DNA of 64,000 nucleotides. It comes from a virus. The stretch covers positions 1 to 64,000 of IMG/VR virus record IMGVR_UViG_3300032288_001980; one strand, given 5' to 3'. This document shows, in pieces, positions 40,808 to 62,977 of this stretch. Numbering within the stretch: the first letter of the stretch is position 1; each line of letters begins with the position of its first letter. The translations under genes and the position numbers were made by a program. Below the pieces are notes generated by a model. That model made no database searches, was not told the origin of the DNA, and worked only from the letters and a program-made list of their open reading frames with translations.

Positions 40808-41338
40808 ATGAGATTAAGAGAATTATTTGAACAAGCAGTTTCCGAAGCACTATTAGTTACCGATGTACCCAACGAAGATTGGTTAGATGGTAAAGTAGAG
40901 TATGCTAGAAAAAAAGGCTATGACAGTTACAACAGCCCATATATGGGCAGTACAACCGGTTATGTTAGACAGCCTAGCCGCGTAGAAATACCTATAGAGA
41001 TACTTAAAAGAATTCCTGGTGCTAGAAAAGAACAGGAAAATGTTCGCAGAGCAGATCTCGAAGCTATTATGAAAATAATGGACGAAACAGGCAAACTGCC
41101 AATGCATGACGGGAAAGAATATGCACCTTTTATTGGAGTTGCATGGAACGGTGATGCTAGAGTTTTAGAAGGTAATCATAGAATTATGGCCGCGGCTAAA
41201 TTGGGCTGGAAGTCTTTGCCAGTAGAATTAAAATACTTTGATGGCGGCGAACGAGTGGAGTCGGGCATGTTATACCCAGGTAAAATTGGATTAAAAGAAC
41301 CTGAACCCGGAACGACTATTGTTATGAATCAGGATTAA
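40808..41338 (+). CDS. MRLxEL-tagged protein with a ParB/Srx-like domain
   Basis: MRLRELFE; VLEGNHRIMAAAKLGWKSLPV. Confidence 0.72.
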   Translation: MRLRELFEQAVSEALLVTDVPNEDWLDGKVEYARKKGYDSYNSPYMGSTTGYVRQPSRVEIPIEILKRIPGARKEQENVRRADLEAIMKIMDETGKLPMHDGKEYAPFIGVAWNGDARVLEGNHRIMAAAKLGWKSLPVELKYFDGGERVESGMLYPGKIGLKEPEPGTTIVMNQD

Positions 41339-41339
41339 T

Positions 41340-41627
41340 ATGCAAGCTCAAGAATTTGATCATTTTGTTAGGTTAGTCAGCGACCAAGAATTAGACAAAG
41401 ATACTATTAAAGATTTTTTTAGAATAGTATTTGATAGTCCTGTTGGAGCATTAATTGATCAGCAATCTGATGGCGCAGTTATGATATATCATGCCAGAGA
41501 CCAAGAGCATTGCTATGATATTCCTTTAGTTGATGATCTTAGTAAATTGGATGGTGACATAATTTCCAAACGTCTATTGGATAAGTTTCCTTTTGATTTC
41601 AGCATCGAAGCCAGTACTAGTGTTTGA
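41340..41627 (+). CDS. Hypothetical acidic protein
   Basis: Open frame in operon. Confidence 0.7.
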   Translation: MQAQEFDHFVRLVSDQELDKDTIKDFFRIVFDSPVGALIDQQSDGAVMIYHARDQEHCYDIPLVDDLSKLDGDIISKRLLDKFPFDFSIEASTSV

Positions 41628-41652
41628 CAACTAAATTAAATTTAGTTATACT
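41624..41652 (+). promoter_or_regulatory. sigma70 promoter with a palindromic spacer (possible operator)
   Basis: TTGACA 41624-41629, TATACT 41647-41652; AACTAAAT-TAA-ATTTAGTT 41629-41647; ATG 5 nt later. Confidence 0.78.
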
Positions 41653-41657
41653 AGTAC

Positions 41658-42020
41658 ATGATTAAAAACATCACTTCTAACTCCTCATTACTAAATGTAA
41701 GTTGCTATCAAGGCAATACTCCATATATCAGTCCAGGTGCCCAAAGTGCCGGTATGCTTAGATATAACACCAACATGAACTATTTAGAAGTCTATGATGG
41801 TGTCAGTTGGCAACAGTTTGGTGGTGGCAATGCTACTATTGATGTAGCACCTCACGTACAGGCTGCTATTGCGTGGGTACAATGTAAAATGGCCGAAGAA
41901 GCCGAAATGAAGGCTATGGCCGCAAAACATGCCAGCGTGGCCCATGCACTAGCTAACGTAGAGCAAGCAAAGAAAGAACTAGATTTAATTTTCCAACTAG
42001 CCAAGGACCACACAGAATGA
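41658..42020 (+). CDS. Hypothetical phage protein
   Basis: AGMLRYNTNMNYLEVYDGVSWQ; C-terminal coiled coil. Confidence 0.75.
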   Translation: MIKNITSNSSLLNVSCYQGNTPYISPGAQSAGMLRYNTNMNYLEVYDGVSWQQFGGGNATIDVAPHVQAAIAWVQCKMAEEAEMKAMAAKHASVAHALANVEQAKKELDLIFQLAKDHTE

Positions 42021-42295
42021 TTACAGTAGAATTTACCACAGACGACACACTAGAGCAACGCACAGAAACTATCGGCGATTTGCTACATCAGCACCATTGC
42101 GAAGTTACTTTTACCAAAGTAGACGGTTCGGTTAGGGTAATGCCCTGTACTCTCAAAGAAGGTAGCTTTCCCATCGTAGAAAGCAAAGGAACCAAAGCCA
42201 AAAATCCAAATGTCTACAGCGTTTGGTGTACTGACAAGTCAGAATGGCGTAGCTTCAAAATTATGAATGTTACCCAAATTACCGTTCTTGACTAA
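42017..42295 (+). CDS. SH3/WYL-like fold phage protein
   Basis: VTFTKVDGSVRVMPCTL...VWCTDKSEWRSF. Confidence 0.7.
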   Translation: MITVEFTTDDTLEQRTETIGDLLHQHHCEVTFTKVDGSVRVMPCTLKEGSFPIVESKGTKAKNPNVYSVWCTDKSEWRSFKIMNVTQITVLD

Positions 42296-42316
42296 TATTT
42301 TCATTTAATGTATAAT
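42288..42316 (+). promoter_or_regulatory. sigma70 promoter
   Basis: TTGACT 42288-42293, 17 nt, TATAAT 42311-42316; ATG 42323. Confidence 0.8.
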
Positions 42317-42322
42317 AGTAGC

Positions 42323-42697
42323 ATGACTACATTTGTCGCCACGGATTCGTTTACACTAGAACAAGTGCAAGACTTTGCACGTATTAGTGGCGACGACCAA
42401 GAAATTCATGTAGTACACGGTATTGTGCAAGGCGGATTCATTATCAGCAAACTGCCTCAATGGCTAGTATGGAGTAAGTTTACCGAACAGGAATATTTCA
42501 AAGACTGTAAGTATGCGCTCAGTGCAAAAATGGATTTGAAGTTTAGTAAACCTGTTAGAGTTGATACTCCTTTGACAATAGAATTTACTTGCGATAATAT
42601 TAAGTCAGCAATCGTCACTATCGACTGGATTGTTAAAAGTGAAAATACTCGGCATTGCTGGGGATCATGGAAAGTTGTTACAAGAAATGGCACATAA
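42323..42697 (+). CDS. MaoC-like hotdog-fold dehydratase
   Basis: VQDFARISGDDQEIHV, IVQGGF, KFSKPVRV; start moved downstream of the promoter. Confidence 0.75.
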   Translation: MTTFVATDSFTLEQVQDFARISGDDQEIHVVHGIVQGGFIISKLPQWLVWSKFTEQEYFKDCKYALSAKMDLKFSKPVRVDTPLTIEFTCDNIKSAIVTIDWIVKSENTRHCWGSWKVVTRNGT

Positions 42698-44065: not shown

Positions 44066-44108
44066 AAACCCCGCTAAATATAAGATTAAAACTTATATAG
44101 CGGGGTTT
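44066..44108 (+). terminator. Long hairpin acting as terminator and/or gate; contains TAAATA
   Basis: AAACCCCGCT/AGCGGGGTTT plus ATATAAG/CTTATAT; TAAATA 44075-44080; next ATG 44112. Confidence 0.7.
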
Positions 44109-44111
44109 TCC

Positions 44112-45098
44112 ATGAGATTTGAAGAATTTATTAGTCAGCCAGCAATAGGCGACATCATTGAAATTGAACTAGGCGAAGAAATAGTAGAAGCGGTTATCAC
44201 TGCCGTTAACGGTGACGAAATTGTTGCTGAAACTGATAGTATATCCGGTGCCAACTTACTAGTTGAGTCTTATGGAAAATACTGGTGCAGTACAGATAAA
44301 AAGTGGAAGGAACGTCAGGGTCCTAAGCAAACACGCAGTAGTGAAAGCATTGAAGAAGTCAAGCAAAGACTAGATCCTAAATGCTGGGACGGTTATAAAA
44401 AACAGGGCACCAAAATCAAAGGTGGTGTTAGAGTTAATAACTGTGTTAAAGAATCAGCAGATGTTAACAGTCTAGCTAAAATCAGCGATGAAGCACTAGA
44501 CAAAGCCTACGGGTACGGTCGCAGTAGTCCTGGTAACACATTTGGCTGGCAAGCCAATGTTATGAGTGCCACTTATGCTAAAAAACTAATTGATGCTGGA
44601 GAAACAGATATTGAAAAAATCTCTGATGCTATCCACAAAGGTTGGAATGTTACTGCACAAAAGTTTGTACAAGATCCCAATCAGTTTGATGATACAGAAA
44701 AACTACGCCAAGCAGGTAAACTAGATGCTAAGTTAGAGCAAAGAGCCAAGTTAATGAAAATTAACTATGCTCAGTTGTCCGAAGACGAAAAAGAAAAAGA
44801 CCGCGTTGTTGCTCGTGCTTTGTTACAAGCTATTAACGGTGAGCAAGGTGTGGCGGAAGCTGAATATCAAGGACGCAATGTTCCCTTAGGCAAGCCAATG
44901 CAAGGCGATGTTAAGAAGTTTAAGGTTTATGTACGTGATCCAAGCACAGGTAATGTGAAAAAAGTAAACTTTGGCGATCCTAACATGCGTATTAAAAAGT
45001 CCAACCCTAAACGCCGTAAGAGTTTCCGTGCAAGACACAATTGCAGTAACCCAGGACCACGTACAAAGGCACGTTACTGGTCATGCAGAAAGTGGTAA
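44112..45098 (+). CDS. MRFxEF-tagged modular protein (Cys/Lys mini-modules, RyR-repeat-like domain, basic C-terminal module)
   Basis: MRFEEFIS; IHKGW...YAQLSEDEKEKDR; EQGVAE linker; AEYQGRNVPLGKP...RYWSCRKW. Confidence 0.75.
   Translation: MRFEEFISQPAIGDIIEIELGEEIVEAVITAVNGDEIVAETDSISGANLLVESYGKYWCSTDKKWKERQGPKQTRSSESIEEVKQRLDPKCWDGYKKQGTKIKGGVRVNNCVKESADVNSLAKISDEALDKAYGYGRSSPGNTFGWQANVMSATYAKKLIDAGETDIEKISDAIHKGWNVTAQKFVQDPNQFDDTEKLRQAGKLDAKLEQRAKLMKINYAQLSEDEKEKDRVVARALLQAINGEQGVAEAEYQGRNVPLGKPMQGDVKKFKVYVRDPSTGNVKKVNFGDPNMRIKKSNPKRRKSFRARHNCSNPGPRTKARYWSCRKW
44845..44858 (+). repeat. 14-bp linker repeat AAGGTGTGGCGGAA, copy 1
   Basis: Identical at 46694-46707 and 47003-47016; encodes GVAE. 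Confidence 0.92.
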
Positions 45099-45501: not shown

Positions 45502-47187
45502 ATGCGATTTACTGAATTCATTAAAGGTCCTGCACCTAAACAAACCAAAACACAATTCACAGAAATGGAATTGGCAATAATGGAGGGCGGCGGCAGTTTA
45601 GAACCCGCAGTCGAGTTGCCAGTTGTCAAACGTCAAAGTGCATTATCGCAGGCCATGGGCGAAGCAGAAATGGGTACTGCTTATGCTCGTAACATATCAC
45701 AAGAGTTTCGAAAACTAGGTTACAAAAAGATTGGCAGCGGTGCAGACAGTACTGTGTTTGCCAAAGAAGCAGGTTATGTAATTAAAATTCTTATGCCCGA
45801 AGATCCAGGTAGTCGTGCTGTAGAAGTGTTTAAAAAATTCTACGAATTTTGCCTGCAACATCAAGATCTTAAATGTTTGCCAGTAATCAACGAATATAAT
45901 ACTATCGATGTACTAGATAAAGAATACATTCAGATTGACATGGAACGACTTTTTCCTATTAGGAAAAATACGTTTTCCGAAGCAATGGTTTGGTATCTAA
46001 GTGATTATGTAAGCAATGACATTGCATGGCCTGCGGTTAAAGCGGAATTATCTAACCCTGATAAATGGGAAGAATCGCATTGGCCTAGGCAAGCTGATAA
46101 AATAGCTAACAAAGTAAAAAATCTCACAGCTGATCAAGAACAAACATGGAGTGAATTATATTCTGTAATGTCCATGTTATTTAAAACTGGACGTATCAAT
46201 AAACTAGGTTGGGACTTGCATACTGAAAATGTCATGCAACGTAAAAACGGCGATCTAGTTATTATCGATCCGTGGTTTGCCGACAATACTTTGTTAGAAT
46301 CTAATTTAGAAGAAAAGTGGAGTCAAAAGTACAAGAAGTCTATTAACTGTAGTAATCCCAAAGGATTTAGCCAACGTGCTCATTGCCAGGGTCGAAAGAA
46401 AAATGAAGGCGTTGAAGCCAATTTGAATACCAAGTATAGTCTAAAAAACATGTTCGGTGATGTAAAATCATTGGACAATTTAAGTCTTGAACAGTTGAAC
46501 AAGGCCATGGACGGCCGTGTTCGACTTGTGGGAAGAAAATTTCGCAGTCAAGAAGGACGCAGTTTTAGATACGATGTTAAACTGGCCAATGGTGAATGGT
46601 ATATCATGCATGTAGTTTATGTGCATGGCTTAATTGATGCTTGGCTCACCGATGAAGAAAACAATAAGATACCGTTGAGCAAATTTAAGGCAAAAGGTGT
46701 GGCGGAAGGTATTGATATTGGTCAGGAGTGGATGAGCGATACTGAACTCGACGACTATGTACCAATACAACTTCAAGACGAGTGGCGTGAGCTGTTGGGA
46801 TTTGATGAAGAAGGAAATCCACATCCATTATGGGTTAACATGACTGGGGACTACGAGCCTAACTCAAACGATCCACAACATCGTGCATGGATGGTCAAAG
46901 TAGCTAACAAATGGTTTGCTATGAAAAAGATTCCTAATGTCAAATTCTATGATGTTAGGGACATAGATGACGAATTAGAATGGTTGGTTCAGATTGGTCA
47001 GCAAGGTGTGGCGGAAAACTTTGCTGACGGCAAAGTCAAAGGCAAAAGCCGGCCCGGTCGTGTAAAACGTGCAGGTGCTAGTTGTGATGGTTCAGTCACT
47101 GACTTACGTGCTAAAGCAAAAAATGCCAGCGGCGAGAAAAGTAAAATGTATCACTGGTGTGCTAATATGAAGTCGGGTAAAAAGTAA
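45502..47187 (+). CDS. MRFxEF-tagged modular protein containing a protein-kinase-like domain
   Basis: GSGADSTV, VIK, DLHTEN, IIDP; then KWSQKYKKSINC module, two GVAE linkers and a basic NFADGK module. Confidence 0.78.
   Translation: MRFTEFIKGPAPKQTKTQFTEMELAIMEGGGSLEPAVELPVVKRQSALSQAMGEAEMGTAYARNISQEFRKLGYKKIGSGADSTVFAKEAGYVIKILMPEDPGSRAVEVFKKFYEFCLQHQDLKCLPVINEYNTIDVLDKEYIQIDMERLFPIRKNTFSEAMVWYLSDYVSNDIAWPAVKAELSNPDKWEESHWPRQADKIANKVKNLTADQEQTWSELYSVMSMLFKTGRINKLGWDLHTENVMQRKNGDLVIIDPWFADNTLLESNLEEKWSQKYKKSINCSNPKGFSQRAHCQGRKKNEGVEANLNTKYSLKNMFGDVKSLDNLSLEQLNKAMDGRVRLVGRKFRSQEGRSFRYDVKLANGEWYIMHVVYVHGLIDAWLTDEENNKIPLSKFKAKGVAEGIDIGQEWMSDTELDDYVPIQLQDEWRELLGFDEEGNPHPLWVNMTGDYEPNSNDPQHRAWMVKVANKWFAMKKIPNVKFYDVRDIDDELEWLVQIGQQGVAENFADGKVKGKSRPGRVKRAGASCDGSVTDLRAKAKNASGEKSKMYHWCANMKSGKK
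46694..46707 (+). repeat. 14-bp linker repeat, copy 2
   Basis: AAGGTGTGGCGGAA. Confidence 0.92.
47003..47016 (+). repeat. 14-bp linker repeat, copy 3
   Basis: AAGGTGTGGCGGAA; 17-bp identity with copy 1 (AGCAAGGTGTGGCGGAA). Confidence 0.92.
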
Positions 47188-47195: not shown

Positions 47196-47828
47196 ATGGT
47201 TACGTTAGAAAAAACTCATGAACAATTAAATCCGCAGGCTACATGGTCAAGACCTATAGACAAGATAATAGTGTCACATGACTGCATGACTAACTTTGAT
47301 CAAAACGGCTACGACCTTACTCCCTTAGAGGAGCGTTATGCAGAAGCCAATGGAGCCAGTGTGCGTAATGTTAGATGGCGTAAAGCAATATTCAAAGATT
47401 GGTTTAGTTGCAGTTCTATAAAAGGTGTACATTTAAATCATGCTTGTTTATTTGAGCGTAAAGGCTTTAGCGGTACGGCTCTAAAACAAATACATCAGTT
47501 TGCTGAGCAGTTTACACCTGTATATAAACTAGTTCATATGAGACCTAAGTGGGGCATAGATATCAGTATAGACTATGCAGATGCTGACAAGGCATTTGAA
47601 GTATTTCACTACGAGTGGGATGATTTTAATTACGATTCAGTGGTTGAAAAACAATATCAAATAGAAAAAGTTATTACTAATGTTGATTGGCAGGACTTAG
47701 CTGATAAGTTTTGGCAAATGCGAGACCAGTGGTTGCATTTAGATTTTTACGGACAAACTAAGTTTAAAACAGATTATCTAAACCTAGAGCCCGAGCGTTT
47801 TAAATTAGTTACATGGACATTAAGTTAA
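47196..47828 (+). CDS. Hypothetical protein
   Basis: FDQNGYDLTPLE, KWGIDISIDY; aromatic-rich. Confidence 0.75.
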   Translation: MVTLEKTHEQLNPQATWSRPIDKIIVSHDCMTNFDQNGYDLTPLEERYAEANGASVRNVRWRKAIFKDWFSCSSIKGVHLNHACLFERKGFSGTALKQIHQFAEQFTPVYKLVHMRPKWGIDISIDYADADKAFEVFHYEWDDFNYDSVVEKQYQIEKVITNVDWQDLADKFWQMRDQWLHLDFYGQTKFKTDYLNLEPERFKLVTWTLS

Positions 47829-47835
47829 ATACTGT

Positions 47836-48462
47836 ATGCGTTTAAAAGAAATTTCACAGCAATATCTTTGGCACGGATCCAGGAACAAAATTCCTGTTCT
47901 AGAGCCAAGACAATCACTAGACACTGGTGGCGCACCAGGTAGTAACCAAAACGCTATCTATGCTACCAGCGACCCAAAAGTTGCAATTGCCATGGGACTT
48001 ACAACAGCTGGTTCTGACACTGGTATGTTTCCTAATGACCCTCAAATGGTTTTATTCAGTGGAAAAATTAGAAAAGGCGAAAATGTTTATTTGCACAAAG
48101 TACCTATGAACGGTCCTGATGGCAAGCCACAGTTTGTGCCCGGCGGTAACAGTAGAGAATTTCATTCCGTTCCTGGAGTTAAAGAAATTAAACCAGTAGA
48201 AATAAAAGAAGTTCCTGTGGACCAGTATCTTCATTTAATCAGAGAAGCTACTCCTGAAGACTGGGAACTACGCAAAAAGTACATGAAGCAAAGTGTAGAC
48301 GAAGCACGTTATCACGGCCGTGAAGTAACACTGGGTATTCCAGTTAAACAGGGCGAACATTATTTTGTTTATCAACGAGATCCTATTACTCAAAAAATAA
48401 AAAAGGTAATACACAAAGAGCCGGCAAAGAAAGTTAAAAAAGTCAAAACTATACGTAAGTGA
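47836..48462 (+). CDS. MRLxE-tagged protein: putative ADP-ribosyltransferase-like domain plus a C-terminal module shared with ORF 44112
   Basis: LWHGS...LEPR...IYATSD (Arr-like H-Y pattern); QSVDE then ARYHGREVTLGIP. Confidence 0.6.
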   Translation: MRLKEISQQYLWHGSRNKIPVLEPRQSLDTGGAPGSNQNAIYATSDPKVAIAMGLTTAGSDTGMFPNDPQMVLFSGKIRKGENVYLHKVPMNGPDGKPQFVPGGNSREFHSVPGVKEIKPVEIKEVPVDQYLHLIREATPEDWELRKKYMKQSVDEARYHGREVTLGIPVKQGEHYFVYQRDPITQKIKKVIHKEPAKKVKKVKTIRK

Positions 48463-50512: not shown

Positions 50513-50525
50513 GTTAAATATAGAT

Positions 50526-50828
50526 ATGAAACAATATAAAATTACCAGTGAAACTTTTAGAACTCAGGGCGATGATCCTAGTATTCCTGACGCTTATGTG
50601 GATCCCGCACAGCTAGCAGAACTTAAAAAACTAGCGGGTATAGACAGTTTGGGAATTATGGAACGACATCGTGCCCGTGACTCTCAAAGCCCTATCACTG
50701 GTGAAATTGGCACGGATAAAGCAGAATATCAGCGTAAGCATAATATTAGACCCGGATCAGACGAGTGGTTTAAGTTGTGGTTTGCAAGGCCCACGCTAAC
50801 TGGAGAAAACCCCATGCCCAAGGCTTGA
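50526..50828 (+). CDS. Hypothetical late protein
   Basis: TAAATA 50515-50520, 5 nt before ATG; IRPGSDEWFKLWF. Confidence 0.75.
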   Translation: MKQYKITSETFRTQGDDPSIPDAYVDPAQLAELKKLAGIDSLGIMERHRARDSQSPITGEIGTDKAEYQRKHNIRPGSDEWFKLWFARPTLTGENPMPKA

Positions 50829-50858
50829 CCCCAACAGGTAAATACTATATAATGGGGT
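50825..50858 (+). promoter_or_regulatory. Nested sigma70 and TAAATA promoters inside a 6-bp inverted repeat
   Basis: TTGACC 50825-50830, TATAAT 50848-50853, TAAATA 50839-50844; ACCCCA/TGGGGT. Confidence 0.7.
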
Positions 50859-50864
50859 TTTATT

Positions 50865-51491
50865 ATGAGTGAGTATTACAAAAGATTACAACTAAACAAT
50901 TTAGAACAGTTTCAAACAACAATCAGTGACTTATATGTTACTGATCCTATTGTTTCTAATGTTACCGGGCCTATCCCTTTATTTAAATCCGGTCAACCAG
51001 AACCCGAGTACAAGTATAGCTTGTTAGCATGGGCGCCTATTCAAATTTTAACTGGATCTAATAGTATTAGTCCTGCATATTTTAGAGTGTTTGGATTACC
51101 ACAACAAACTTATCCAATAGTAGAACAGGGACATGACATTAAAGTTCACCATCGACAAGCACGAGACTCAAAAGAAGTATTAACGGCCCATTTATTACAA
51201 CTAATAATGTATATTCCCATTTTAAATGGGGCCGATCACACTATAGAATTATATGATCCCGACTCTGAGGAGTTACTAGATAGTTTTGCACTAACTACGC
51301 CTGTATTGGTTGACAGCAACCTTAAAATGAAATCTGTAATTAATAATCCCAATGGTTGTTGGCATGTACAAATACAATTTGTAACTAAACATGCGTATGC
51401 AATGACAGGAAATATGCTACTTCAAACTATTGGTACTCCAATGGCTCCGGGAGCCTTATCTTTCCCTGCATCCCAAATTTTACCTGACTAA
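50865..51491 (+). CDS. Hypothetical protein, possibly cupin-like
   Basis: KVHHR, IMYIPI, GCWHVQIQF. Confidence 0.65.
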   Translation: MSEYYKRLQLNNLEQFQTTISDLYVTDPIVSNVTGPIPLFKSGQPEPEYKYSLLAWAPIQILTGSNSISPAYFRVFGLPQQTYPIVEQGHDIKVHHRQARDSKEVLTAHLLQLIMYIPILNGADHTIELYDPDSEELLDSFALTTPVLVDSNLKMKSVINNPNGCWHVQIQFVTKHAYAMTGNMLLQTIGTPMAPGALSFPASQILPD

Positions 51492-51494
51492 ACC

Positions 51495-52600: not shown

Positions 52601-52646
52601 AATAAATGGTATAAATTCAATAAATACATGAATTGAGCCATTTATT
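52601..52646 (+). promoter_or_regulatory. TAAATA in the loop of a hairpin that abuts the start codon
   Basis: AATAAATGG/CCATTTATT plus AATTCA/TGAATT; TAAATA 52621-52626; ATG 52647. Confidence 0.7.
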
Positions 52647-53873
52647 ATGCGATTACAAGAACTTCTAGCTGAAAATATCACATTACTCGAGTACAATCGA
52701 GATATCACCGCCCAAAACTATGGCAGGAAAATCGTCCCTATTGCTAGGAGAGATCGTAGTATACCCGCACAATTCAGAGATCCAGATCAAGTATCCGACG
52801 ACCAATTATTAGATTTAGTCATGGACCAAATCGAAAAGTCGGATCCCACACAAAATAAAGAATACGCACAGGCCCTAGCAAAAATATACGGACAAGGACA
52901 AACAAAGTTCGAAGACATGGGCAGTACATTATCAGATTATCTTATTAAATTTGATAAACTTAAACGCAAAAAAGTTATTCCTAGTCCTCGTAATGATTTT
53001 ATGCGCTATACTAATATTGGCGATTTTTTAAGTGTAGTTGACGAATATCCCGATGTAGACGAAAGCCCCGAAGCCAAAGGCAAATCCCACGAAATTTATA
53101 AAGATTCTGTTCTAAGAGTAATTCAACCTATTAACAAAGAAGCCGCTTGCTATTACGGACGTGGTACACGTTGGTGTACTGCGGCTAATACTAATAACAT
53201 GTTTGACACTTATGCCGGCAAGGGCGAATTGTTTATTCTTATACCTCAAAAGCCTGCATATAAAGATGAGAAATATCAACTGCATTTCGAAACTAGGCAG
53301 TTTATGAATGAAAAAGATCATCCTGTACCAATGATAGATCTTGTAAAAAGATTCCCGCAATTAAAACAAATATTCTACGATCAAGCACATAATCTTAATA
53401 TCAAAGCCTTGATACTTGACACAGAAGAATATGAAAAATTACTTAGAAAATTCCCAGAAGAAATAAGAAATCGTTTATTAGCATTTGTAAATGAAGACAC
53501 TGGTACTGTTATTAAAAATATGCTGGTACAATTACTTCACGACGCAAAAATTCTAAAAGAGTTAGTTGATCCAGACGAATTCAAAGAACTAGCATGGGAA
53601 GCCTTTAATGACGAAGGTTATGATTTAGTTAATAAAATTACTAGAACCATTCGTGATATTGATACATGGCAAGAGTTTGAAGCAAGATATGATATAGTCA
53701 GTGATGCAATAGCAGACTGGACGCAGGAAAAAGATTTTTATCAGTTAATCATGGACGAATTAGAAAGCATCGATGAGCTAGACCTACAGATGGACTGTGC
53801 AATAGGCATGAACGGTGAAATACTAAACTGGCTAGATGCGGCCATTGAACATAACGTAAGGGAACTAATATGA
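52647..53873 (+). CDS. MRLxEL-tagged protein with a PcfJ-like domain
   Basis: MRLQELLAE; AACYYGRGTRWCTA...KYQLHF. Confidence 0.68.
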   Translation: MRLQELLAENITLLEYNRDITAQNYGRKIVPIARRDRSIPAQFRDPDQVSDDQLLDLVMDQIEKSDPTQNKEYAQALAKIYGQGQTKFEDMGSTLSDYLIKFDKLKRKKVIPSPRNDFMRYTNIGDFLSVVDEYPDVDESPEAKGKSHEIYKDSVLRVIQPINKEAACYYGRGTRWCTAANTNNMFDTYAGKGELFILIPQKPAYKDEKYQLHFETRQFMNEKDHPVPMIDLVKRFPQLKQIFYDQAHNLNIKALILDTEEYEKLLRKFPEEIRNRLLAFVNEDTGTVIKNMLVQLLHDAKILKELVDPDEFKELAWEAFNDEGYDLVNKITRTIRDIDTWQEFEARYDIVSDAIADWTQEKDFYQLIMDELESIDELDLQMDCAIGMNGEILNWLDAAIEHNVRELI

Positions 53874-55354
53874 GAGCCAGTGAGCTTTTTGAATCAAAAC
53901 AGAAAAAATTAAATGGCCTTACGGTTATGAGCTTGGATCAATTTGTTGATCATGAACAACAGGACGTAGAAGAATCCGCAGGAGACAGTCAATGGCTGGA
54001 TCGAGCAGATGTCTTAATTAAAAAACTAGGTAGACTTGGCCAAGCAGTTGTGACAAATCCTATGCATTGGAGACGTTACGAGTCTGCTGTTGAAAATAAT
54101 GATACTGATTGGCTTTACAACTTTATTGCATATCACTTAAAGTCTAACACAAAAGAAATGCTAAAGCTCGATAACCTTATTGGTGACATAGGCGGCGGCC
54201 TAGGCAGGCTTACTGATTTTGCTTGGTCTGTTAAAGAAGGAAAATGGAAAGAAGATTTCTTAGAACCATGGGAAGAATACAAATCCAGCATGACTAGTGA
54301 AAGTCTGTCAGAAGCTCCATTTGGTCTAGGATCCAAGTATAGGGCAATGGACGACGATGAAATGCAGGATTTTTTAGGCCGCGTTAAAACTAAGACCAAA
54401 ACTAAAAGAGACAAGTTCGACTATCCTTACGTGCATGGCAGTAACGTTGAAATCAAGGACGAAAAAGGACACAAGTACGACTTGGATGCACTTAAGGCCA
54501 TGATCACTGCTAGACCAAAAAGTATATTAGGCCAAAACGCTAAAATGCAACACAGCGAAACCGGCAGTCAAGCAATCTATGACATTGGCTTACCAGCACT
54601 TAAAGGACTGGCAGTCAATGAAGAAACAGGTGAGTTTGTAGTAGTAGATACTTGCCCGGGCGCCGGCGCTTGTAAAACTTACTGTTATGCAATGCAGGGC
54701 GGCTATGTTATGTTTAAAGCTTCTAGTATGAGCAGTACTAGATTGTTAAACTTCTTATTAAACGATCCTGAAGGCTTTGCAAGTATGCTTAACACAGAAA
54801 TAGAAAAATCTAAAGCCAAGCTGGGTAAAAAGAATGTTAAGATGGTAGTTCGTTGGCACGATGCCGGAGACTTTTTTAGTCCTGAATATCTAGATGTTGC
54901 TTATCAAATTGCTAATGATAATCCTGACGTAGAGTTTTATGCTTATACCAAGATAGCTGACGTAGCTACTGCAAGTCGTCCTAAGAATTTCCGTATGAAC
55001 TTTAGCGGAGGCGCACATACCAGTCAGGAAAAGAAAGTAGACTTTCAAAGAGTCAAGCACAGCAAGGTTGTGCCGCAAGAAATGTTTTGGGACTTGATTG
55101 CACGTGATGGTAACAAGCTAATTAAAGATGCCAAAGACCGTATGCAATTTAAGTCCGGTGCAGAGTTAGAAGAATTTAAACAGCGCATGGCTAAAAAGTA
55201 TGCATTAGATACCAGCAGTATCATTACATATGATGAAATGATGCGTACTCCCGAAGGTGATAAAAACAAATGGAATGTTATTGTAATGCCTGGCGACGGT
55301 GACAACGCAGCCAATAGAGATGATGTTTTAGGTAGCTATTTGCTATTCCATTGA
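53870..55354 (+). CDS. MRAxEL-tagged modular protein with a C-terminal GP88-like Cys domain
   Basis: MRASELFE; TCPGAGACKTYCYA, VRWHDAGDF, YAYTK. Confidence 0.72.
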   Translation: MRASELFESKQKKLNGLTVMSLDQFVDHEQQDVEESAGDSQWLDRADVLIKKLGRLGQAVVTNPMHWRRYESAVENNDTDWLYNFIAYHLKSNTKEMLKLDNLIGDIGGGLGRLTDFAWSVKEGKWKEDFLEPWEEYKSSMTSESLSEAPFGLGSKYRAMDDDEMQDFLGRVKTKTKTKRDKFDYPYVHGSNVEIKDEKGHKYDLDALKAMITARPKSILGQNAKMQHSETGSQAIYDIGLPALKGLAVNEETGEFVVVDTCPGAGACKTYCYAMQGGYVMFKASSMSSTRLLNFLLNDPEGFASMLNTEIEKSKAKLGKKNVKMVVRWHDAGDFFSPEYLDVAYQIANDNPDVEFYAYTKIADVATASRPKNFRMNFSGGAHTSQEKKVDFQRVKHSKVVPQEMFWDLIARDGNKLIKDAKDRMQFKSGAELEEFKQRMAKKYALDTSSIITYDEMMRTPEGDKNKWNVIVMPGDGDNAANRDDVLGSYLLFH

Positions 55355-55355: not shown

Positions 55356-56195
55356 ATGAGACTACAAGAATTATTAAATGAAGCACCTCTAGTAGATTAT
55401 GAACCTTTTGGTGACTTTAATAAGCCGGGCCCGTTTAGGGGACCTGACAAAAAACTAGTGCCTCATCCTGTTAACAAAGTTAAGGCCATAAAGTTTTTTG
55501 AAAAGACACCTTTTGATTTTAGATTGTTTTTTAGTAATGTATCGGGTACCGGGCGCTACAGTGAATACGGACCGATGACTCCAAGTAATGTGGAAATCAT
55601 ATTTGGTGATGAAGGTAAAGAAATTGTCAAAGGTCACGAAGATGCAATTACAGTAGTATTTGTGGGCAACAAAGGTGATGCTAAACGTATGCTGACTCCA
55701 TGGGTTATGGCACATAGATTCGGCCATGCTATTGTAGCTGGTGGTAGGGGTAGCAGTGGAGATCCTGCTTGGCAAGAAGCAGAAAGTCACTTCTTTAGAA
55801 CTATCAATCAAATTCTTCAGGATTTTTATGGCAACAGAGGTAACCCAGGTGGACAATTAAAGTTTGAACTCAGTAAAGAATACAATGCTTTATTCAATGC
55901 TATTGGCACACAACGCAGTAGTAGGGAAGGTGATATTAAAAGACCCTACGAGTTTTTATATGAACTATTTGCACAGTACTTGGGCACTGGCAACGTAACA
56001 CTAAATCCGTTGCCAGTTAGTATCGGCTATGGACGGCAAGCATGGGGCAACCCTAGTCGTCAGTTAACTATACGTTCAGAAGAACTAAGAGACGAACAAG
56101 AAAGACGTCAAACAACAGAAGTTTTAGCTAGGGATATGGAACTGTTGTTTAATGACGTTTTGGGTAATTCTGTGGGAAAAATATATGTTATGTGA
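55356..56195 (+). CDS. MRLxEL-tagged protein, zincin-like
   Basis: MRLQELLNE; TPWVMAHRFGHAI; YEFLYELFAQY. Confidence 0.65.
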   Translation: MRLQELLNEAPLVDYEPFGDFNKPGPFRGPDKKLVPHPVNKVKAIKFFEKTPFDFRLFFSNVSGTGRYSEYGPMTPSNVEIIFGDEGKEIVKGHEDAITVVFVGNKGDAKRMLTPWVMAHRFGHAIVAGGRGSSGDPAWQEAESHFFRTINQILQDFYGNRGNPGGQLKFELSKEYNALFNAIGTQRSSREGDIKRPYEFLYELFAQYLGTGNVTLNPLPVSIGYGRQAWGNPSRQLTIRSEELRDEQERRQTTEVLARDMELLFNDVLGNSVGKIYVM

Positions 56196-56245: not shown

Positions 56246-56282
56246 GACCCTTAAACCCATATAGTCCAGTATAAATATAATT

Positions 56283-56630
56283 ATGAGATTAACTGAGCTT
56301 AAATCTGGTATTAATACACTTGGACGTACTGGCGCGGGCGATGTCGAAATCGCACGACTAGCCCGTAGAGCTCGTAGTATGTACCCCAATTTAGGTCATG
56401 ACGATTTAGAAGCTGTACTAAAATACTTGGAGCTTGGCTTAGAAAAAGACCAAAGCGACATAGACGATGTAGAGCGCAATGATGCAGAGCAAGAGCATGA
56501 GCTGAATAAAATGGACAAAGAAATTGATCAACTTGACAAAGAAGTTGACGATTTAGAATCCAGAGAAGAAACGGATAGGGAACTGATCGCCAATCTCCGT
56601 GACACCATAAGAATATTACAATCAAGATGA
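56283..56630 (+). CDS. MRLxEL-tagged acidic coiled-coil protein
   Basis: MRLTELKS; TATAAATA at 56270-56277. Confidence 0.75.
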   Translation: MRLTELKSGINTLGRTGAGDVEIARLARRARSMYPNLGHDDLEAVLKYLELGLEKDQSDIDDVERNDAEQEHELNKMDKEIDQLDKEVDDLESREETDRELIANLRDTIRILQSR

Positions 56631-57736
56631 GATTACAAGAATTAGTTGAAAACACATCCGGTGCTTTTGCTGCCGTTAGCGCACCAATCGGCTCTATGCA
56701 ACGTAGAGTGAAAAAAGTAAAAGAAGATAGCGACAGCAGAGAAGCAGTATCTAATGCTATTTCACGTCGCATCCTAACTCGCCACCCAGAATTACTACAA
56801 AAATATGGCCCTGTACAGGTTATGGACGCTATTGACTCTGTGGCTGATTTTGTGGGAGATGTAGATGAAATTGGAACTAGCGATGTATCTGGATGGGTCA
56901 TGCAGGTAGCTGATATGCTTGAAGAACACGGTGATTCAAGTCGATTAGGAGAAACTAACAAATATCGCCTTAAACCTCCCCCAGGTTACGGAGATTACTC
57001 CAAAGGCGCCCACAATTCAGATGGCACTGCTTCTAAACAACGTGAAATAGACAGAGAGTTTGACAAACAAGAATACGAGTATAGCCGTAGAAGAGAAGAG
57101 GAAGAAGAACGTAAGAGTCGTACAGTGGGCGAATCAACAGAAGAAGATATTATAAATTCAGGTATGCCTTTAAAACACATCGAACGAGAACTGCAACACT
57201 CTGGTCTTGAACTCGACATTCGTCGTTTTCTAAGATGGGCCATTGACAATGGTAGTTCTCACATAGAAGATGCTATAGAACTTGCCGACAAAGCTATAGC
57301 AAAGTATCCACAAGAAACCAAAGAAATAGTTTATCCTTTGCATCGTCTAAAAAAACTACTAAACAATGGTGTCGACGAAGCCGCGCCGTTCCCAGTTAAG
57401 ATGGCAGCTGGTTTAGGCATGGGCGCACTAAGTGGTACTGGTGGTGTTATTATAGGCAGTATGTTGGGTGGTATTTTTGCTCCTATCATAGGAGGTTACA
57501 CCGGTTATCAAGGCGCTAAATTAGGCATGAAAGCCGCAGATGACATTTGGGATTGGGCCAGTAGAAAGCTAGGCGGTAAAGAAGAAGATGCGGCTTTTGC
57601 ACATATCAGAGCTGCCGCCGCTGGTAAAGATACCTTTGAATTCAACGGCAAAGAATACGAAGTTACATTACCTAAAACCGATGTTAATAAAGCTATTCAG
57701 GCTGTTAAGCAAGTTGCTGAAGCTAGATTAGCTTAA
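56627..57736 (+). CDS. MRLxEL-tagged modular protein with a glycine-zipper hydrophobic segment
   Basis: MRLQELVE; VKE, LGE, VGE and GVDE junctions; GLGMGALSGTGGVIIGSMLGG. Confidence 0.75.
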   Translation: MRLQELVENTSGAFAAVSAPIGSMQRRVKKVKEDSDSREAVSNAISRRILTRHPELLQKYGPVQVMDAIDSVADFVGDVDEIGTSDVSGWVMQVADMLEEHGDSSRLGETNKYRLKPPPGYGDYSKGAHNSDGTASKQREIDREFDKQEYEYSRRREEEEERKSRTVGESTEEDIINSGMPLKHIERELQHSGLELDIRRFLRWAIDNGSSHIEDAIELADKAIAKYPQETKEIVYPLHRLKKLLNNGVDEAAPFPVKMAAGLGMGALSGTGGVIIGSMLGGIFAPIIGGYTGYQGAKLGMKAADDIWDWASRKLGGKEEDAAFAHIRAAAAGKDTFEFNGKEYEVTLPKTDVNKAIQAVKQVAEARLA

Positions 57737-58904: not shown

Positions 58905-60151
58905 TGCCAACACCTACTCCGATGACTCCTGCTAAACCTATTGCTCCTGGTGCAACTAAACCACAAGGAACAACAGCGCCAGGAGCGCCTAATCAGCAAA
59001 ATGCTAACACACCTGGTCAAAATTCAGACGAGGTTGTTCGTAATCCGGGTGAAAAGATTTACAGTTTAAAAACACAAAAAGATCCAAACGGATCAATGAC
59101 TGTTTTTGCTAAAAACGAAATGGAAGCAAAAGCAAAATATCAGCAAATGGGCGCACCAATGGGCACAGTTGCACAAGCTATCGAAGTTAAAGAGGATAAA
59201 GCTATGACATATCAAGAACGTGTAGCACAATTTCATGAATCATCATTTCCTACATTAGAAGATGCAATCGTAGGAACACTACATGATCACTTATTAGAAA
59301 ATGGTGTTGATTTTTATGTTGACGGTGCTATTAAAACACGCAGTCAACAGACTGCATTAGACATTGTAGAAACTCTACAACAGTTCAGCACTGATTTTAT
59401 TCCTTTCGTTGTTGAAAGTGATGGCGAGTATATTATCAAAGTAGGTACTTTAGAAGAGGATACGTTATTAGAGGACGAGGTTAACTTACCTGACCCTACA
59501 CGTATTTCTGTAAAACAAAATGCCGCTGGTGCTTTTAAAGTATATGTAGGTGAAGATGTTGCAGACACATTTGATAGCATAAAAAGTGCTTCAAAGTATA
59601 TCCAAACACTTGTGTCTGAGACACGAGCACAATTTGATGAACTGGATGAAATGTTCCAGTACACTATCGGAGTAAGTATGGTTAATGAAGGCAAAAAGAA
59701 AATGGCTAAAGAAGGCAATGCCTTCGACTGGAAAAACAAAGAAGACGACGATAAGCCAAAAGTCGGCGATAAAAAGCGTACTAGCAAGGGCGAAGTAGAA
59801 TATACTAAAACTGGATTAATCCACAGAGCACGTCAGAACTATGGCGGTGCTGATTCCGAAGAGGATACAGCAGACGGAAAAGATCCAGCAACAGGCGAAA
59901 AGCGTGGCCGTGGTCGTCCACGTACTCGTCCACTACCTGATCCTGACGCTCCTAAGCGTGGTCGTGGTCGCCCAAAGAAAGTTAAAGAAGCACAAGCCAG
60001 CTTGTCTAATCTTAAAAAGCAAGTTAAAGAAACACTACGTAAGATCGAAAGCCTAAGTGAAAGCCAGCGCAGTAATCCTAAGGTAGCCGAAGTAGTACAA
60101 AGACTACACGAATCAGTCACTAAGGCAGTTGCCGCGGCACGTATGCTATGA
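58904..60151 (+). CDS. Modular probable internal head protein with two AT-hooks
   Basis: KRGRGRPRTRP and KRGRGRPKK; Pro/Gln-rich N-terminus. Confidence 0.75.
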   Translation: MPTPTPMTPAKPIAPGATKPQGTTAPGAPNQQNANTPGQNSDEVVRNPGEKIYSLKTQKDPNGSMTVFAKNEMEAKAKYQQMGAPMGTVAQAIEVKEDKAMTYQERVAQFHESSFPTLEDAIVGTLHDHLLENGVDFYVDGAIKTRSQQTALDIVETLQQFSTDFIPFVVESDGEYIIKVGTLEEDTLLEDEVNLPDPTRISVKQNAAGAFKVYVGEDVADTFDSIKSASKYIQTLVSETRAQFDELDEMFQYTIGVSMVNEGKKKMAKEGNAFDWKNKEDDDKPKVGDKKRTSKGEVEYTKTGLIHRARQNYGGADSEEDTADGKDPATGEKRGRGRPRTRPLPDPDAPKRGRGRPKKVKEAQASLSNLKKQVKETLRKIESLSESQRSNPKVAEVVQRLHESVTKAVAAARML

Positions 60152-60318
60152 GATTACACGAGCTAGTAGAATCAAAAAGCAAACTTGGTACCGATTACAC
60201 TACAGACAAAGTGTTTTCAGACCAAGTCAAAGCCACCGACAAAGCCACGAAAATGCCTGTTGCCCAATGGGGTACTAAGCATCCGTTTAACGGCAAGCTA
60301 GTAGGCGGCGGAGTATAA
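60148..60318 (+). CDS. Unlisted 56-aa MRLxEL-tagged protein
   Basis: MRLHELVESKSK...HPFNGKLVGGGV; ATGA overlap; stop 1 nt before dps. Confidence 0.8.
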   Translation: MRLHELVESKSKLGTDYTTDKVFSDQVKATDKATKMPVAQWGTKHPFNGKLVGGGV

Positions 60319-60760: not shown

Positions 60761-60771
60761 TCAGTTTCCCC

Positions 60772-60792: not shown

Positions 60793-60804
60793 CATTTTAT
60801 CGAT

Positions 60805-61098
60805 ATGCAGAATTTAAAAAAACAACGGTATCGGCCGGCTCGGAAGCCGCACGATCATATACCTACTAACGAAGCTCAGTTACTCAGTAAACAATTTACA
60901 GAACAAGAACTAGACATTATAAAACAACTAGCTAGTAATCAATTAGACTATAATAGTTCTCAAGTAACAGATGAGTTGCAAGACAAGCTATATGATTTTT
61001 ATCATTCCAAAATGCCTAGTATAACTAAAAGCGTTCACGGTAGTCCAGGTCTTTGGATTACGGCCAGATTAAATACAATATATAAGAATTCGCTCTAA
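60805..61098 (+). CDS. Hypothetical protein
   Basis: LYDFYHSKMP...PGLWI. Confidence 0.65.
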   Translation: MQNLKKQRYRPARKPHDHIPTNEAQLLSKQFTEQELDIIKQLASNQLDYNSSQVTDELQDKLYDFYHSKMPSITKSVHGSPGLWITARLNTIYKNSL

Positions 61099-61100
61099 GA

Positions 61101-61200
61101 GCAACCAGCCCCACCTTAGGGCCGTTAGTCGTCAACGGTATTAGGCGTCCGGACAATTGGACTGTACCCCGTTAGTGTACGCTGGATAAAGTAACCAGCA
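61101..61200 (+). ncRNA. GC-rich structured RNA candidate, family not recognised
   Basis: Four hairpins in an intergenic island; TAAATA at 61070-61075. Confidence 0.5.
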
Positions 61201-61203
61201 TCT

Positions 61204-61232
61204 TTGACTTTAGACACTGACTCTTGTACAAT
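61204..61232 (+). promoter_or_regulatory. sigma70 promoter
   Basis: TTGACT 61204-61209, 17 nt, TACAAT 61227-61232; ATG 5 nt later. Confidence 0.72.
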
Positions 61233-61237
61233 AAAAT

Positions 61238-61864
61238 ATGAATGTTACCAACATAATCGACTCTCCTGCTATTATTGATGTTGAGTTTCCAGAATTCGAA
61301 AGATTTGATGTTGATCGTATGTTTGAGGCACCAGCGGGCAGAGTTGACTATGGGTCGTTAGATGTAGAGCCACAACGATTTACAATATTTCCACGTGATG
61401 ATACCAACGACGAGTTTAGTAAATTTAGTAAAGAGCTCTATGAGCCGCTAAGGTTAATAACTAAACAATTAGTATCTCTAGATCCGTTACGGTACCCTAT
61501 GTTCGATAGTCCTAACTTCGACATTTGGTTTACTAAACGTTATGCTAGTAGAACAAAAATAGCATTTAGTAGAGTAATCGATCAGCCTGGGTTCAATCAA
61601 GGCTGGCATTTAGATAATAGATTTGTATTGTTATCGGGTGTAATCAATGTACAAGATAACAATACGCAAACACATTTTTCTCATGAGAGAATTATGCGTT
61701 GGGTACCCGAACAAGTAGAACATGAATTTCCTGAAAAAATAATTCATCAGGGACAAAATAAAAAGTGGACCGGCACGTTTTGGCTTAATACTGAAATTAC
61801 TTGGCACTGTGTGCCTTTAGTTGAAACTACAAGAAAGATTATTTTATGCAATTTGTTTCTTTAA
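61238..61864 (+). CDS. 2OG-Fe(II) oxygenase-like protein
   Basis: GWHLDN (HxD), TWHCVP, TRKII. Confidence 0.65.
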   Translation: MNVTNIIDSPAIIDVEFPEFERFDVDRMFEAPAGRVDYGSLDVEPQRFTIFPRDDTNDEFSKFSKELYEPLRLITKQLVSLDPLRYPMFDSPNFDIWFTKRYASRTKIAFSRVIDQPGFNQGWHLDNRFVLLSGVINVQDNNTQTHFSHERIMRWVPEQVEHEFPEKIIHQGQNKKWTGTFWLNTEITWHCVPLVETTRKIILCNLFL

Positions 61865-62604
61865 AGAAATATACAACAACTAGCTGGAAAGTTCTTTATA
61901 TACAAATTGCCGCACATCTTGGCCTTTTGTATCAAATATTTTATGGAGAAGCATGGTGGTGGTTAGTTAGTTTATTTGTTTTCGTAGCCAGCGGTTGTTT
62001 TGGTCTTGTAATGACTTATCACAGACTGTTAGCGCATAACAGCTGGCCTGCTAGCAGTAGATATAGAAAAATAGGTAGTCTGCTTGGTGCTTATGCGGGA
62101 ATCGGTAGTCCCATGGTATGGACTGCGGTACATAGGGCGCATCATAAGTTTGTTGACACAGCTCGAGACCCACATGGACCCGAGCACTTAGGACTAGCCC
62201 GTGTACAGTTTCTAGGTATGTTTGGCCAAGCAGGCGGCGAGCATATTATTGACATGCTCAAAGACAAGTTTCAAACTAATCTAAATAGATACTATTTTAA
62301 GCTACATATAGCAATAGCAGTAACTTGGTTGATAATCAGTCCAACTCTATTTGTCTGTGCTTACCTTGCACCCATGGCATTATTATGGGAAATTGGCGGT
62401 AGCGTAAACACTATTAATCACTGGTTCGGCTACAAAAACCGAGATAACCACAAACATCATGCTTACAATAATCCCATTACAGCTATTTTATTCTTTGGTG
62501 AAGGCTGGCATGCTAACCATCATGATAATCCTATCAGCTATACAACCAAAGAAAAATGGTGGGAATTTGACTTTGCTGGTTTAATGATCAAATTGGTTAA
62601 ATAA
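61846..62604 (+). CDS. Membrane fatty-acid (delta-9-type) desaturase
   Basis: Three His boxes YHRLLAH, HRAHH, WHANHH; TM segments; VNTINH; WWEFD. Confidence 0.92.
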   Translation: MQFVSLKKYTTTSWKVLYIQIAAHLGLLYQIFYGEAWWWLVSLFVFVASGCFGLVMTYHRLLAHNSWPASSRYRKIGSLLGAYAGIGSPMVWTAVHRAHHKFVDTARDPHGPEHLGLARVQFLGMFGQAGGEHIIDMLKDKFQTNLNRYYFKLHIAIAVTWLIISPTLFVCAYLAPMALLWEIGGSVNTINHWFGYKNRDNHKHHAYNNPITAILFFGEGWHANHHDNPISYTTKEKWWEFDFAGLMIKLVK

Positions 62605-62608
62605 TACT

Positions 62609-62977
62609 ATGAGAGCTCACGAATTTATACAAGAACAAACAGCCATGGATATCGAACGTGCTAGAATCGATATTATTGGCCTAGGACATTTAGTACTATT
62701 TGGTACTTTGCCAGTGGGCAAGGATGCTAATTCCAGTATTAAACAGCTTAGTCAAGTTGGCATAACTTATCCTGACTTACATCAAAAACTCTTGGACTTT
62801 TACAATAAGGAAAAAGATCCACACGCAGATTGCATCCCCGTAATCAAAAAATGGCTAGTAGCACATAAACCAAATATTGCCAGTGAACTACACAGCGAAC
62901 ACTGGGAACATCACCCCAAGAGCTCTAACATGATGAGTTCTACTAAGAAGCAAAAGCCGCCTGAAATAACTTCTTGA
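62609..62977 (+). CDS. MRAxEF-tagged protein
   Basis: MRAHEFIQE; TAAATA 62598-62603. Confidence 0.72.
   Translation: MRAHEFIQEQTAMDIERARIDIIGLGHLVLFGTLPVGKDANSSIKQLSQVGITYPDLHQKLLDFYNKEKDPHADCIPVIKKWLVAHKPNIASELHSEHWEHHPKSSNMMSSTKKQKPPEITS

Follow-up and report, generated by a model that had tools for sequence, protein, structure and literature searches.

An N-terminal motif shared by eleven ORFs of an uncultured T4-related jumbo phage resembles the T4 capsid-targeting sequence

The 64-kb window analyzed here (positions 1 to 64,000) is the start of the 183,898-bp IMG/VR viral contig IMGVR_UViG_3300032288_001980 (39% G+C; completeness ~52% by CheckV). Between window positions 40,808 and 62,977, eleven open reading frames (ORFs) share an N-terminal motif, which is real, non-random, and conserved at the peptide level. 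We consider it likely that this motif, M-R-(L/F/A)-x-E-(L/F/I)-(x)-x-E, covering 8-9 N-terminal residues and hereafter called the tag, acts as a T4-type capsid-targeting sequence (CTS). In T4, the CTS is found on the internal proteins IPI, IPII, and IPIII (Mullaney and Black 1996, as reviewed in PMC9026906 and PMC3012670). The principle is known from T4, and the literature searched contained no account of it for phages of this group or on such a scale.

The initial annotation of the window had proposed that a portable T4-type tag loads a diverse protein arsenal into the phage head. This proposal is the best-supported reading on account of the head module, the match to T4 tags, a core protein with the same start, and the virion proteins of the cultured relative PA5oct, while the labels that had been given to the cargo proteins hold only in part.

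A tag shared by unrelated ORFs

All of the eleven ORFs previously listed with an MR(L/F/A)xE(L/F)-type start were confirmed. A six-frame scan of the whole contig for MR[LFAIVM]xE[LFIVM] returned exactly 11 occurrences, all of them at ORF starts on the + strand, from 40808 to 62609. Each tagged ORF begins at the first start codon following an in-frame stop. The expected number of occurrences was 0.7 on average (maximum 3) in 60 order-2 Markov genome simulations and 0.25 in column shuffles of ORF N-termini. The tagged ORFs, named below by their first position, and one candidate for a twelfth cargo protein are the following.

40808..41338, + strand: tagged ORF 1, 176 aa, MRLRELFE, ParB-like lead (phrog_8071, 6.7e-5; LEGNHR motif)
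41340..41627, + strand: candidate 12th cargo, 95 aa, MQAQEF, deviating from the tag at residue 2 only
44112..45098, + strand: tagged ORF 2, 328 aa, MRFEEFIS, multi-module, Cys-rich basic motif
45502..47187, + strand: tagged ORF 3, 561 aa, MRFTEFIK, kinase-like domain at aa 62-261 (phrog_15752, T7 0.7-type, 1e-12)
47836..48462, + strand: tagged ORF 4, 208 aa, MRLKEIS, predicted ADP-ribosyltransferase (ART)-fold module (YLWHGSR...), SVDE linker, and C-terminal module shared with ORF 2
52647..53873, + strand: tagged ORF 5, 408 aa, MRLQELLAE, homologue of PA5oct gp205, a virion protein by mass spectrometry (MS)
53870..55354, + strand: tagged ORF 6, 494 aa, MRASELFE, GP88 domain (PF17338, 2.9e-32)
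55356..56195, + strand: tagged ORF 7, 279 aa, MRLQELLNE, widespread family (model with predicted local distance difference test score, pLDDT, of 86; residues 1-8 disordered)
56283..56630, + strand: tagged ORF 8, 115 aa, MRLTELKS, acidic coiled coil
56627..57736, + strand: tagged ORF 9, 369 aa, MRLQELVE, glycine-zipper-like hydrophobic stretch at aa ~260-300
60148..60318, + strand: tagged ORF 10, 56 aa, basic, MRLHELVE
62609..62977, + strand: tagged ORF 11, 122 aa, MRAHEFIQE

The 11 proteins showed no mutual similarity in an all-against-all BLASTP comparison, except for a ~55-aa C-terminal module common to ORFs 44112 and 47836, and their earlier description as otherwise unrelated stands with this single qualification. 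The portability of the tag is also indicated by GP88 orthologues with different tags (described below) and by the AlphaFold2 (AF2) models of ORFs 47836 and 55356, in both of which the tag was disordered and lay outside the fold.

The tag codons vary among the copies (AGA/CGA/CGT, TTA/CTA, GAA/GAG, and TTA/CTT/CTA), and conservation is therefore at the level of the peptide. These codon differences bear on an alternative explanation, in which the motif is a 5' signal at the RNA or DNA level (for example, an enhancer of translation or a cassette for recombination) and the peptide has no function. In its favor, most of the tagged genes have no obvious Shine-Dalgarno sequence. The tag-coding DNA of T-even phages has also been discussed as a recombination site. 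Nevertheless, the codons are free to vary while the chemical class of the residues is kept, both within this genome and across hundreds of homologues, and we consider a nucleic-acid signal the least probable of the explanations examined.

TAAATA, the T4-type late promoter core, was present at most 45 nt upstream of five of the 11 tagged ORFs (44112, 47836, 52647, 56283, and 62609), in agreement with the earlier remark that several of them follow this word. The boxes are located as follows.

47826..47831, + strand: TAAATA (T4-type late promoter core), 4 nt before the ATG of ORF 4
44075-44080, + strand: TAAATA-like box
52621-52626, + strand: TAAATA-like box
56272-56277, + strand: TAAATA-like box
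62598-62603, + strand: TAAATA-like box

TAAATA was also found ahead of the portal gene and other structural genes and, genome-wide, upstream of 36 of the 228 ORFs. A scan for sigma-70 promoters yielded no more sites than were found in shuffles.

The phage and its head module

The contig harbors a head module at 160-169 kb in the T4 order: portal, a 75-aa ORF, a 287-aa acidic ORF, a Peptidase_S77 protease, scaffold, and major capsid protein (MCP). The protease is of the gp21 prohead type (PF03420, 88.5 bits; contig positions 165696-166142); it lies at 165639-166277, and its PA5oct equivalent is gp152. The MCP shared 65-69% identity with its counterparts in Sinorhizobium phage Phosso, Vibrio phage 2.275.O, Pseudomonas phage PA5oct, and Cronobacter phage GAP32, which places the phage, by protein identity, in the RaK2/PA5oct/GAP32-type clade of T4-related jumbo phages.

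The region at 30-36 kb of the window, with genes for PhoH and for DnaJ-like and ClpA-like proteins, was syntenic with PA5oct at 190.6-195.8 kb. The DnaJ-like (33110) and ClpA-like (33934-36186) genes lie directly upstream of the tagged array and correspond to PA5oct gp297 and gp298. PA5oct additionally encodes ClpX, ClpS, and ClpP. The phage-borne set includes both chaperones and proteases.

When 20 kb of the array was compared by megablast with 50,697 phage records, no match was obtained. In tblastn searches of cultured phages, ORF 55356 had no match and ORF 53870 had only distant GP88 matches in actinophages. Therefore, cultured close relatives are lacking for most of the cargo. A protein identical to that of ORF 52647 is recorded on a 284,024-bp contig, and a longer version of the phage genome therefore exists in public data.

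Likeness to the capsid-targeting tags of T4

The T4 CTS is a classic sorting signal that has been used to package foreign proteins and, to our knowledge, has been investigated almost exclusively in the T-even group. The T4 N-termini were taken from GenBank AF158101, in which IPII and IPIII start with MKTYQEFIAE, as given in the initial annotation, IPI with MKTFKEFTS, gp24 with MAKINELLRE, and Alt with MELITELFDE. The tags MRAHEFIQE, MRLQELLAE, MRASELFE, and MRLRELFE match these T4 tags given a one-residue deletion after Met-Lys/Arg. In particular, MRLQELLAE and MRAHEFIQE match MKTYQEFIAE at Y4 (L/A), E6, F7 (L/F), I8 (L/I), and E10. A review of Black's work names residues 4 and 7 of the T4 tag as key positions for targeting and residues 8 and 10 for processing (PMC9026906), and these named positions are among those that match here.

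A hydrophobic-x-Glu site is located at residues 3-5 of all tags, and a second site of this kind ends at residue 8 or 9 in seven of the 11, which are the copies with a second Glu. The maturation site of T4 gp23, FLTE/A, aligns with YLSE/S in the MCP of this phage and with FLVE/N in PA5oct, indicating that the hydrophobic-x-Glu specificity of the prohead protease is probably kept.

The tag thus has in common with the CTS of T4 (IPs, Alt, and gp24) its position at Met1, its length, its hydrophobic pattern (a Glu between hydrophobic residues), and a further hydrophobic-x-Glu before a small residue. It also shares unrelated carriers, a gp21-family protease, a T4-like prohead core encoded in a head module of T4 order, and a constant tag on cargo sets that differ among relatives. 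Unlike the T4 tag, the tag here is one residue shorter (M-R-h-x-E-h... versus M-K-T-Y-Q-E-F..., h being hydrophobic). The carriers number at least 11 within 22 kb, as against three or four in T4, and most of them are large enzymes or multi-module proteins that are not basic. In addition, the protein at the gp67 position shares the tag start in this phage, whereas T4 gp67 starts with MEGLIEAIK.

A head-core protein with the same start

The relaxed motif M[RK]xxE[LFIVM] matched, among the 228 ORFs, the 11 tagged ORFs and only one more. This additional ORF is the 75-aa ORF at the gp67 position, between portal and protease, and starts with MKFLELRE. In 48 related IMG/VR loci retrieved with the protease, the start of the gp67-position ORF was nearly always M[KR][LFYI]xE[LFVI]. 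As judged from these N-termini, the cargo tag is a copy of the start of a head-core protein conserved in the clade. When gp67-position starts were compared with cargo tags in five genomes, both had the same general motif, with no clear lineage-specific co-variation.

Motif-bearing proteins in PA5oct virions

Virion proteins of PA5oct were defined as the coding sequences (CDSs) that carry an electrospray ionization tandem mass spectrometry (ESI-MS/MS) note for purified virions in the GenBank record, which applies to 93 of 461 (20%); the mass spectrometry is described in PMC7318152. PA5oct had six tagged ORFs by the strict motif. Nine annotated CDSs start with [M/V][RK]-hydrophobic-x-[ED]-hydrophobic, and seven of them are MS virion proteins (gp150, 175, 205, 230, 238, 380, and 381), including gp150, the gp67-position protein. 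The other two, gp75 and gp382, are both small and bear no virion mark. Compared with the base rate of 20%, seven of nine corresponds to a binomial probability of ~3e-4, for a motif that was chosen after seeing the data. Additionally, gp205 (EST35_0205, annotated as "structural protein, ESI-MS/MS") is homologous to ORF 52647 (tblastn 9e-23, PA5oct 130479-131132). Propeptides and cleavage are not discussed in the PA5oct paper (PMC7318152).

The PA5oct data show presence in the virion only, which would also fit a tag that docks proteins onto another virion part, such as tail or neck appendages or an outer decoration, so that the carriers are structural add-ons and not injected cargo. RaK2-like phages do bear elaborate appendages. 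On the other hand, the same start occurs on a small core protein encoded between portal and protease, the tag matches T4 head-internal tags including their hydrophobic-x-Glu cleavage pattern, and kinase-like and ART-fold cargo makes little sense outside the capsid. Docking is therefore regarded as unlikely.

The same data bear on a role of the tag as a recognition signal for the phage AAA+ chaperone and protease set, in which it would be a degron or an unfolding handle that times protein activity in the cell. N-terminal degrons are known in bacteria, and the position of the DnaJ-like and ClpA-like genes directly upstream of the array, with its synteny in PA5oct, would suit this idea. In PA5oct, motif-bearing proteins accumulate in virions and are not degraded; moreover, the motif is common to the head-core protein and resembles the T4 capsid tags. 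We judge a degron to be very unlikely.

Conservation of the tag in uncultured relatives

In the protein database, the tag was present at the start of 108 of 120 homologues of ORF 52647. The family of ORF 55356 comprised 623 homologues, with the tag in 105 of the 120 listed and Glu at position 9 in 96 of these 105 tagged homologues among the matches listed. The consensus in the two families was M-[RK]-[AILY]-x-[ED]-[FIL]-[IL]-x-E-[ASV], and the likeness to T4 is illustrated by a homologue starting with MRAQEFITEA (T4, MKTYQEFIAEA).

Three long related contigs, one of them complete at 328 kb, had 4-10 tagged ORFs each by the strict motif. The tagged ORFs of the relatives were clustered, and the protein bodies mostly differ from genome to genome. 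Such diversity of cargo behind a constant tag is the pattern of the T-even internal proteins, which are diverse with the tag alone conserved (PMC3012670). GP88 orthologues in other phage lineages carry other short Glu-ending tags (MKTFKQHLSE, MDIRNILNIITE) before a conserved KKLNGL..MSLDQF stretch. The literature searched contained no account of such tags in RaK2/PA5oct-type phages, nor of the QGVAE linker described below.

Predicted cargo proteins

The labels proposed for individual cargo proteins fared unequally. The labels of kinase (ORF 45502) and GP88 (ORF 53870) are supported by the profile matches given in the list above, and a match of ORF 45502 to Kinase-PolyVal in Pfam (E 0.052) was below the cut-off.

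The label of ART-like protein for ORF 47836 is supported by structure prediction. The AF2 model had a pLDDT of ~90 over residues 10-150 and below 50 in the tag (residues 1-6) and the linker (154-164). The top Foldseek match was Arr (probability 0.99, E 2e-3), and nearly all of the top 50 rows of VIA-align belonged to the ART superfamily, including Tpt1/KptA-type proteins (Z 8.0), pertussis S1 (Z 6.4), Arr (Z 6.3), and diphtheria toxin (Z 6.2). Among 32 homologues of the module, Y42 was invariant and H13 and E108 were nearly so. Residues ~10-150 are thus modeled as an ADP-ribosyltransferase fold, which makes the protein a putative functional parallel to T4 Alt. A phmmer search of ORFs 47836 and 45502 against PDB sequences returned nothing usable.

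For ORF 40808, ParB-like remains a lead, based on the phrog_8071 match and the GNHR motif. ORF 55356 had been labeled a zincin, which the analysis does not support: the model had no clear structural neighbor (best VIA-align Z 4.2; Foldseek anthrax-LF-type zincins, probability 0.11), and HExxH was absent from all tagged ORFs. A PPEP-3 row covered most of this model with Z 3.4 in VIA-align. The PcfJ-like label likewise found no support, and none of the tagged ORFs matched a PcfJ, zincin, or ART family in a Pfam search at E<=5.

ORF 45502 combines a kinase-like domain with two modules and ORF 47836 an ART fold with a small module, a make-up that may resemble that of polyvalent proteins, and seven of the 11 proteins are of single-domain or unknown make-up. 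Residues 31-94 of ORF 56627 were 64% identical to part of a cargo protein of a related contig (G001). The glycine-zipper-like stretch of ORF 56627 (window 57400-57530) could insert into a membrane after ejection; a predicted transmembrane segment is present in the ejection protein gp47 of SPN3US (PMC5694885).

Small Cys-containing basic modules were observed at window 44350-44470 (ORF 44112, aa 85-122) and 46380-46500 (ORF 45502, aa 283-310). Such mini-modules recur among the cargo proteins and are also found in a related phage, in ORF 146515-148380 of G001. They include KCWxGY...K(I/G)KGG..VNNCV and (S/H)(I/N)NCSNP...C, which match phrog_4359 and phrog_22379 (no assigned function).

The untagged genes of the array encode ordinary enzymes, namely a UvdE endonuclease, a B12 radical SAM protein, an AurF-like oxygenase, and a fatty-acid desaturase. 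A further explanation takes the tag as a leader for phage radical-SAM enzymes, similar to the recognition sequences of ribosomally synthesized and post-translationally modified peptides (RiPPs), and thus as a handle for modification and not a sorting signal. It draws on the B12 radical-SAM gene (48488) inside the array and on seven more such genes from 63024 onward. PA5oct, in contrast, has tagged virion proteins and no Radical_SAM match, and in the related contigs G001 and G003 tens of kb separate the tagged clusters from the radical-SAM arrays; a leader function therefore appears highly improbable.

The B12-binding radical SAM, AurF-like di-iron oxygenase, and desaturase genes are interspersed untagged at window 48488-52595 and 61846-62604. 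A desaturase paralogue was observed at ~107 kb of the contig and a weak radical SAM relative at ~107.8 kb.

GVAE linkers between modules

Several module borders in the tagged proteins are marked by a short linker, listed here.

44847..44858, + strand: linker word GGTGTGGCGGAA (G-V-A-E) in ORF 2, candidate internal protease site
46696..46707, + strand: linker word GGTGTGGCGGAA (G-V-A-E) in ORF 3
47005..47016, + strand: linker word GGTGTGGCGGAA (G-V-A-E) in ORF 3
48292..48303, + strand: variant linker S-V-D-E in ORF 4, where homologues carry (Q)GV[A/T/E/D]E

GVAE occurred three times in all ORFs of the contig, each time at a module border inside the tagged ORFs 44112 and 45502. In ORF 44112, the linker at aa 246 is followed by a phrog_7595 module, and in ORF 45502 the kinase-like domain is followed by two modules with GVAE borders at aa 399 and 502. 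A different protein of G001 contains a part with 75% identity to the module at aa 392-509 of ORF 45502, and modules common to different proteins of the two contigs had 64-78% identity. G001 has three further GVAE copies, likewise in its tagged cluster.

Homologues of the ART module showed dozens of architectures, some of them fused to parts named NUDIX, ParB, GNAT, VapD, or Zn-ribbon, with (Q)GV[A/S/T/E/D]E flanking the module on either side. GVAE was ~90 times commoner in three cargo families than in the background, and complete ORFs bearing the linker were tagged 5.3 times more often than their neighbors (p = 3e-7). As Val-x-Glu with Gly or Ala after it agrees with the hydrophobic-x-Glu cleavage pattern described above, and the linker region of ORF 47836 was disordered in the AF2 model, we infer that the (Q)GVAE linkers may be internal protease sites that free the modules after packaging.

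The linker is also conserved at the nucleotide level. All six GVAE copies of this contig and G001 are encoded by GGT GTG GCG GA(A/G), in which GTG (11%) and GCG (8%) are rare codons here. The linker word GGTGTGGCGGAA is usually preceded by CAA. The longer word CAAGGTGTGGCGGAA was found in at least 120 IMG/VR stretches, many loci having 2-4 copies a few hundred bases apart. Among the matches listed, 102 of 110 copies of CAAGGTGTGGCGGAA read QGVAE in the frame of the longest ORF, their flanks being unrelated, and 122 of 168 GVAE motifs in the CAAGGTGTGGCGGAA loci used the same twelve bases, the remainder being one-step synonymous variants. In head-module loci, GVAE motifs present by chance used ordinary codons. 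The conservation extends over ~18 bases in contigs of 30-59% G+C. The obvious idea is that the linker word might be a recombination joint for module swapping, which would agree with the modules that this contig and G001 have in common.

Proposed mechanism and points against it

We infer core binding, cleavage, retention in the head, and injection of the tagged proteins along the following lines. The tagged proteins would be made late, and the tag would bind the scaffolding core of the prohead, so that the carriers become enclosed when the shell forms. The gp21-type protease would then remove the tag after Glu5, Glu8/9, or both, at a hydrophobic-x-Glu site, and the mature cargo would remain inside the head alongside the DNA and pass into the host cell on infection. 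ORFs 44112, 45502, and 47836 would be chains of modules whose (Q)GVAE linkers are cut after Glu by the same protease, and in this way one tag could load several effectors.

Several points weigh against this mechanism. The support from this phage itself is at the sequence level, and the contig represents only about half of the genome. Four of the 11 tags (MRFEEFIS, MRFTEFIK, MRLKEIS, and MRLTELKS) have no second Glu, the enrichment of TAAATA at tagged ORFs is modest, and the cargo is not generally basic (median isoelectric point 6.6), unlike the T4 internal proteins. The PA5oct motif was selected post hoc, and the mass spectrometry of its virions demonstrates presence and not head-internal location, cleavage, or ejection. 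Finally, the conservation of synonymous sites in the linker is not explained by a protease site alone.

A wider reading is possible and is offered tentatively: that modular head cargo is a property of a large clade of T4-related jumbo phages, most of them uncultured. One N-terminal address would load interchangeable effector modules, fixed (K/E/Q)-Q-G-V-A-E linkers would be cut by the prohead protease in the capsid, the identical linker DNA (CAAGGTGTGGCGGAA) would act as a swap joint, and the tagged proteins would be components of the inner body of 121Q and phAPEC6. These two phages belong to the present clade and are reported to have an inner body by bubblegram imaging, for which the component proteins are unknown (PMC7247149).

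Relation to other known systems

In phiKZ, 201phi2-1, and SPN3US, a gp21-related prohead protease cleaves many head-internal proteins after Glu, and phiKZ-like phages have multiple cleavage sites per protein and a large mass of internal protein (PMC5694885, PMC9026906). The ejection and inner-body proteins of this group resemble the system proposed here in Glu processing, in the gp21-related protease, and in having several sites in one protein. Unlike the tag, their propeptides are mostly longer than 100 residues and have no common short N-terminal word. The phiKZ-like clade is also distinct from the RaK2/PA5oct type and carries a virion RNA polymerase.

The polyvalent proteins of phages and conjugative elements (Iyer, Burroughs, Anand, de Souza, and Aravind 2017; PMC5512222) have in common with the tagged proteins an ART, kinase, and ParB-type repertoire thought to enter the host with the DNA, as well as unrelated modules in one polypeptide that are shuffled between elements. 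Unlike polyvalent proteins, most effectors here are separate, each with its own short tag, and the multi-module cargo is joined by a fixed linker resembling a prohead-protease site instead of carrying its own peptidase domain.

In RaK2/PA5oct-type jumbo phages and hundreds of uncultured relatives, the head cargo appears to be marked by a recognizable 9-residue version of the CTS. In that case, the injected protein sets of such phages could be read directly from sequence, and they would include candidate enzymes for host takeover or counter-defense, such as the ART-fold and kinase-like proteins. The tagged proteins are also named candidates for the inner-body proteins of the clade. Together, the tag and the GVAE linker provide a testable rule for loading several proteins with one address, for which PA5oct could be used as a cultured model.

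Other features of the window

Five short tandem ORFs (70-85 aa) were observed at window 1873-2993. Those at 2115, 2318, 2527, and 2775 overlap the preceding stop and have nearly the same upstream words (..ATGTTTGTACTGAG..), as would be expected of a small family of tandem genes.

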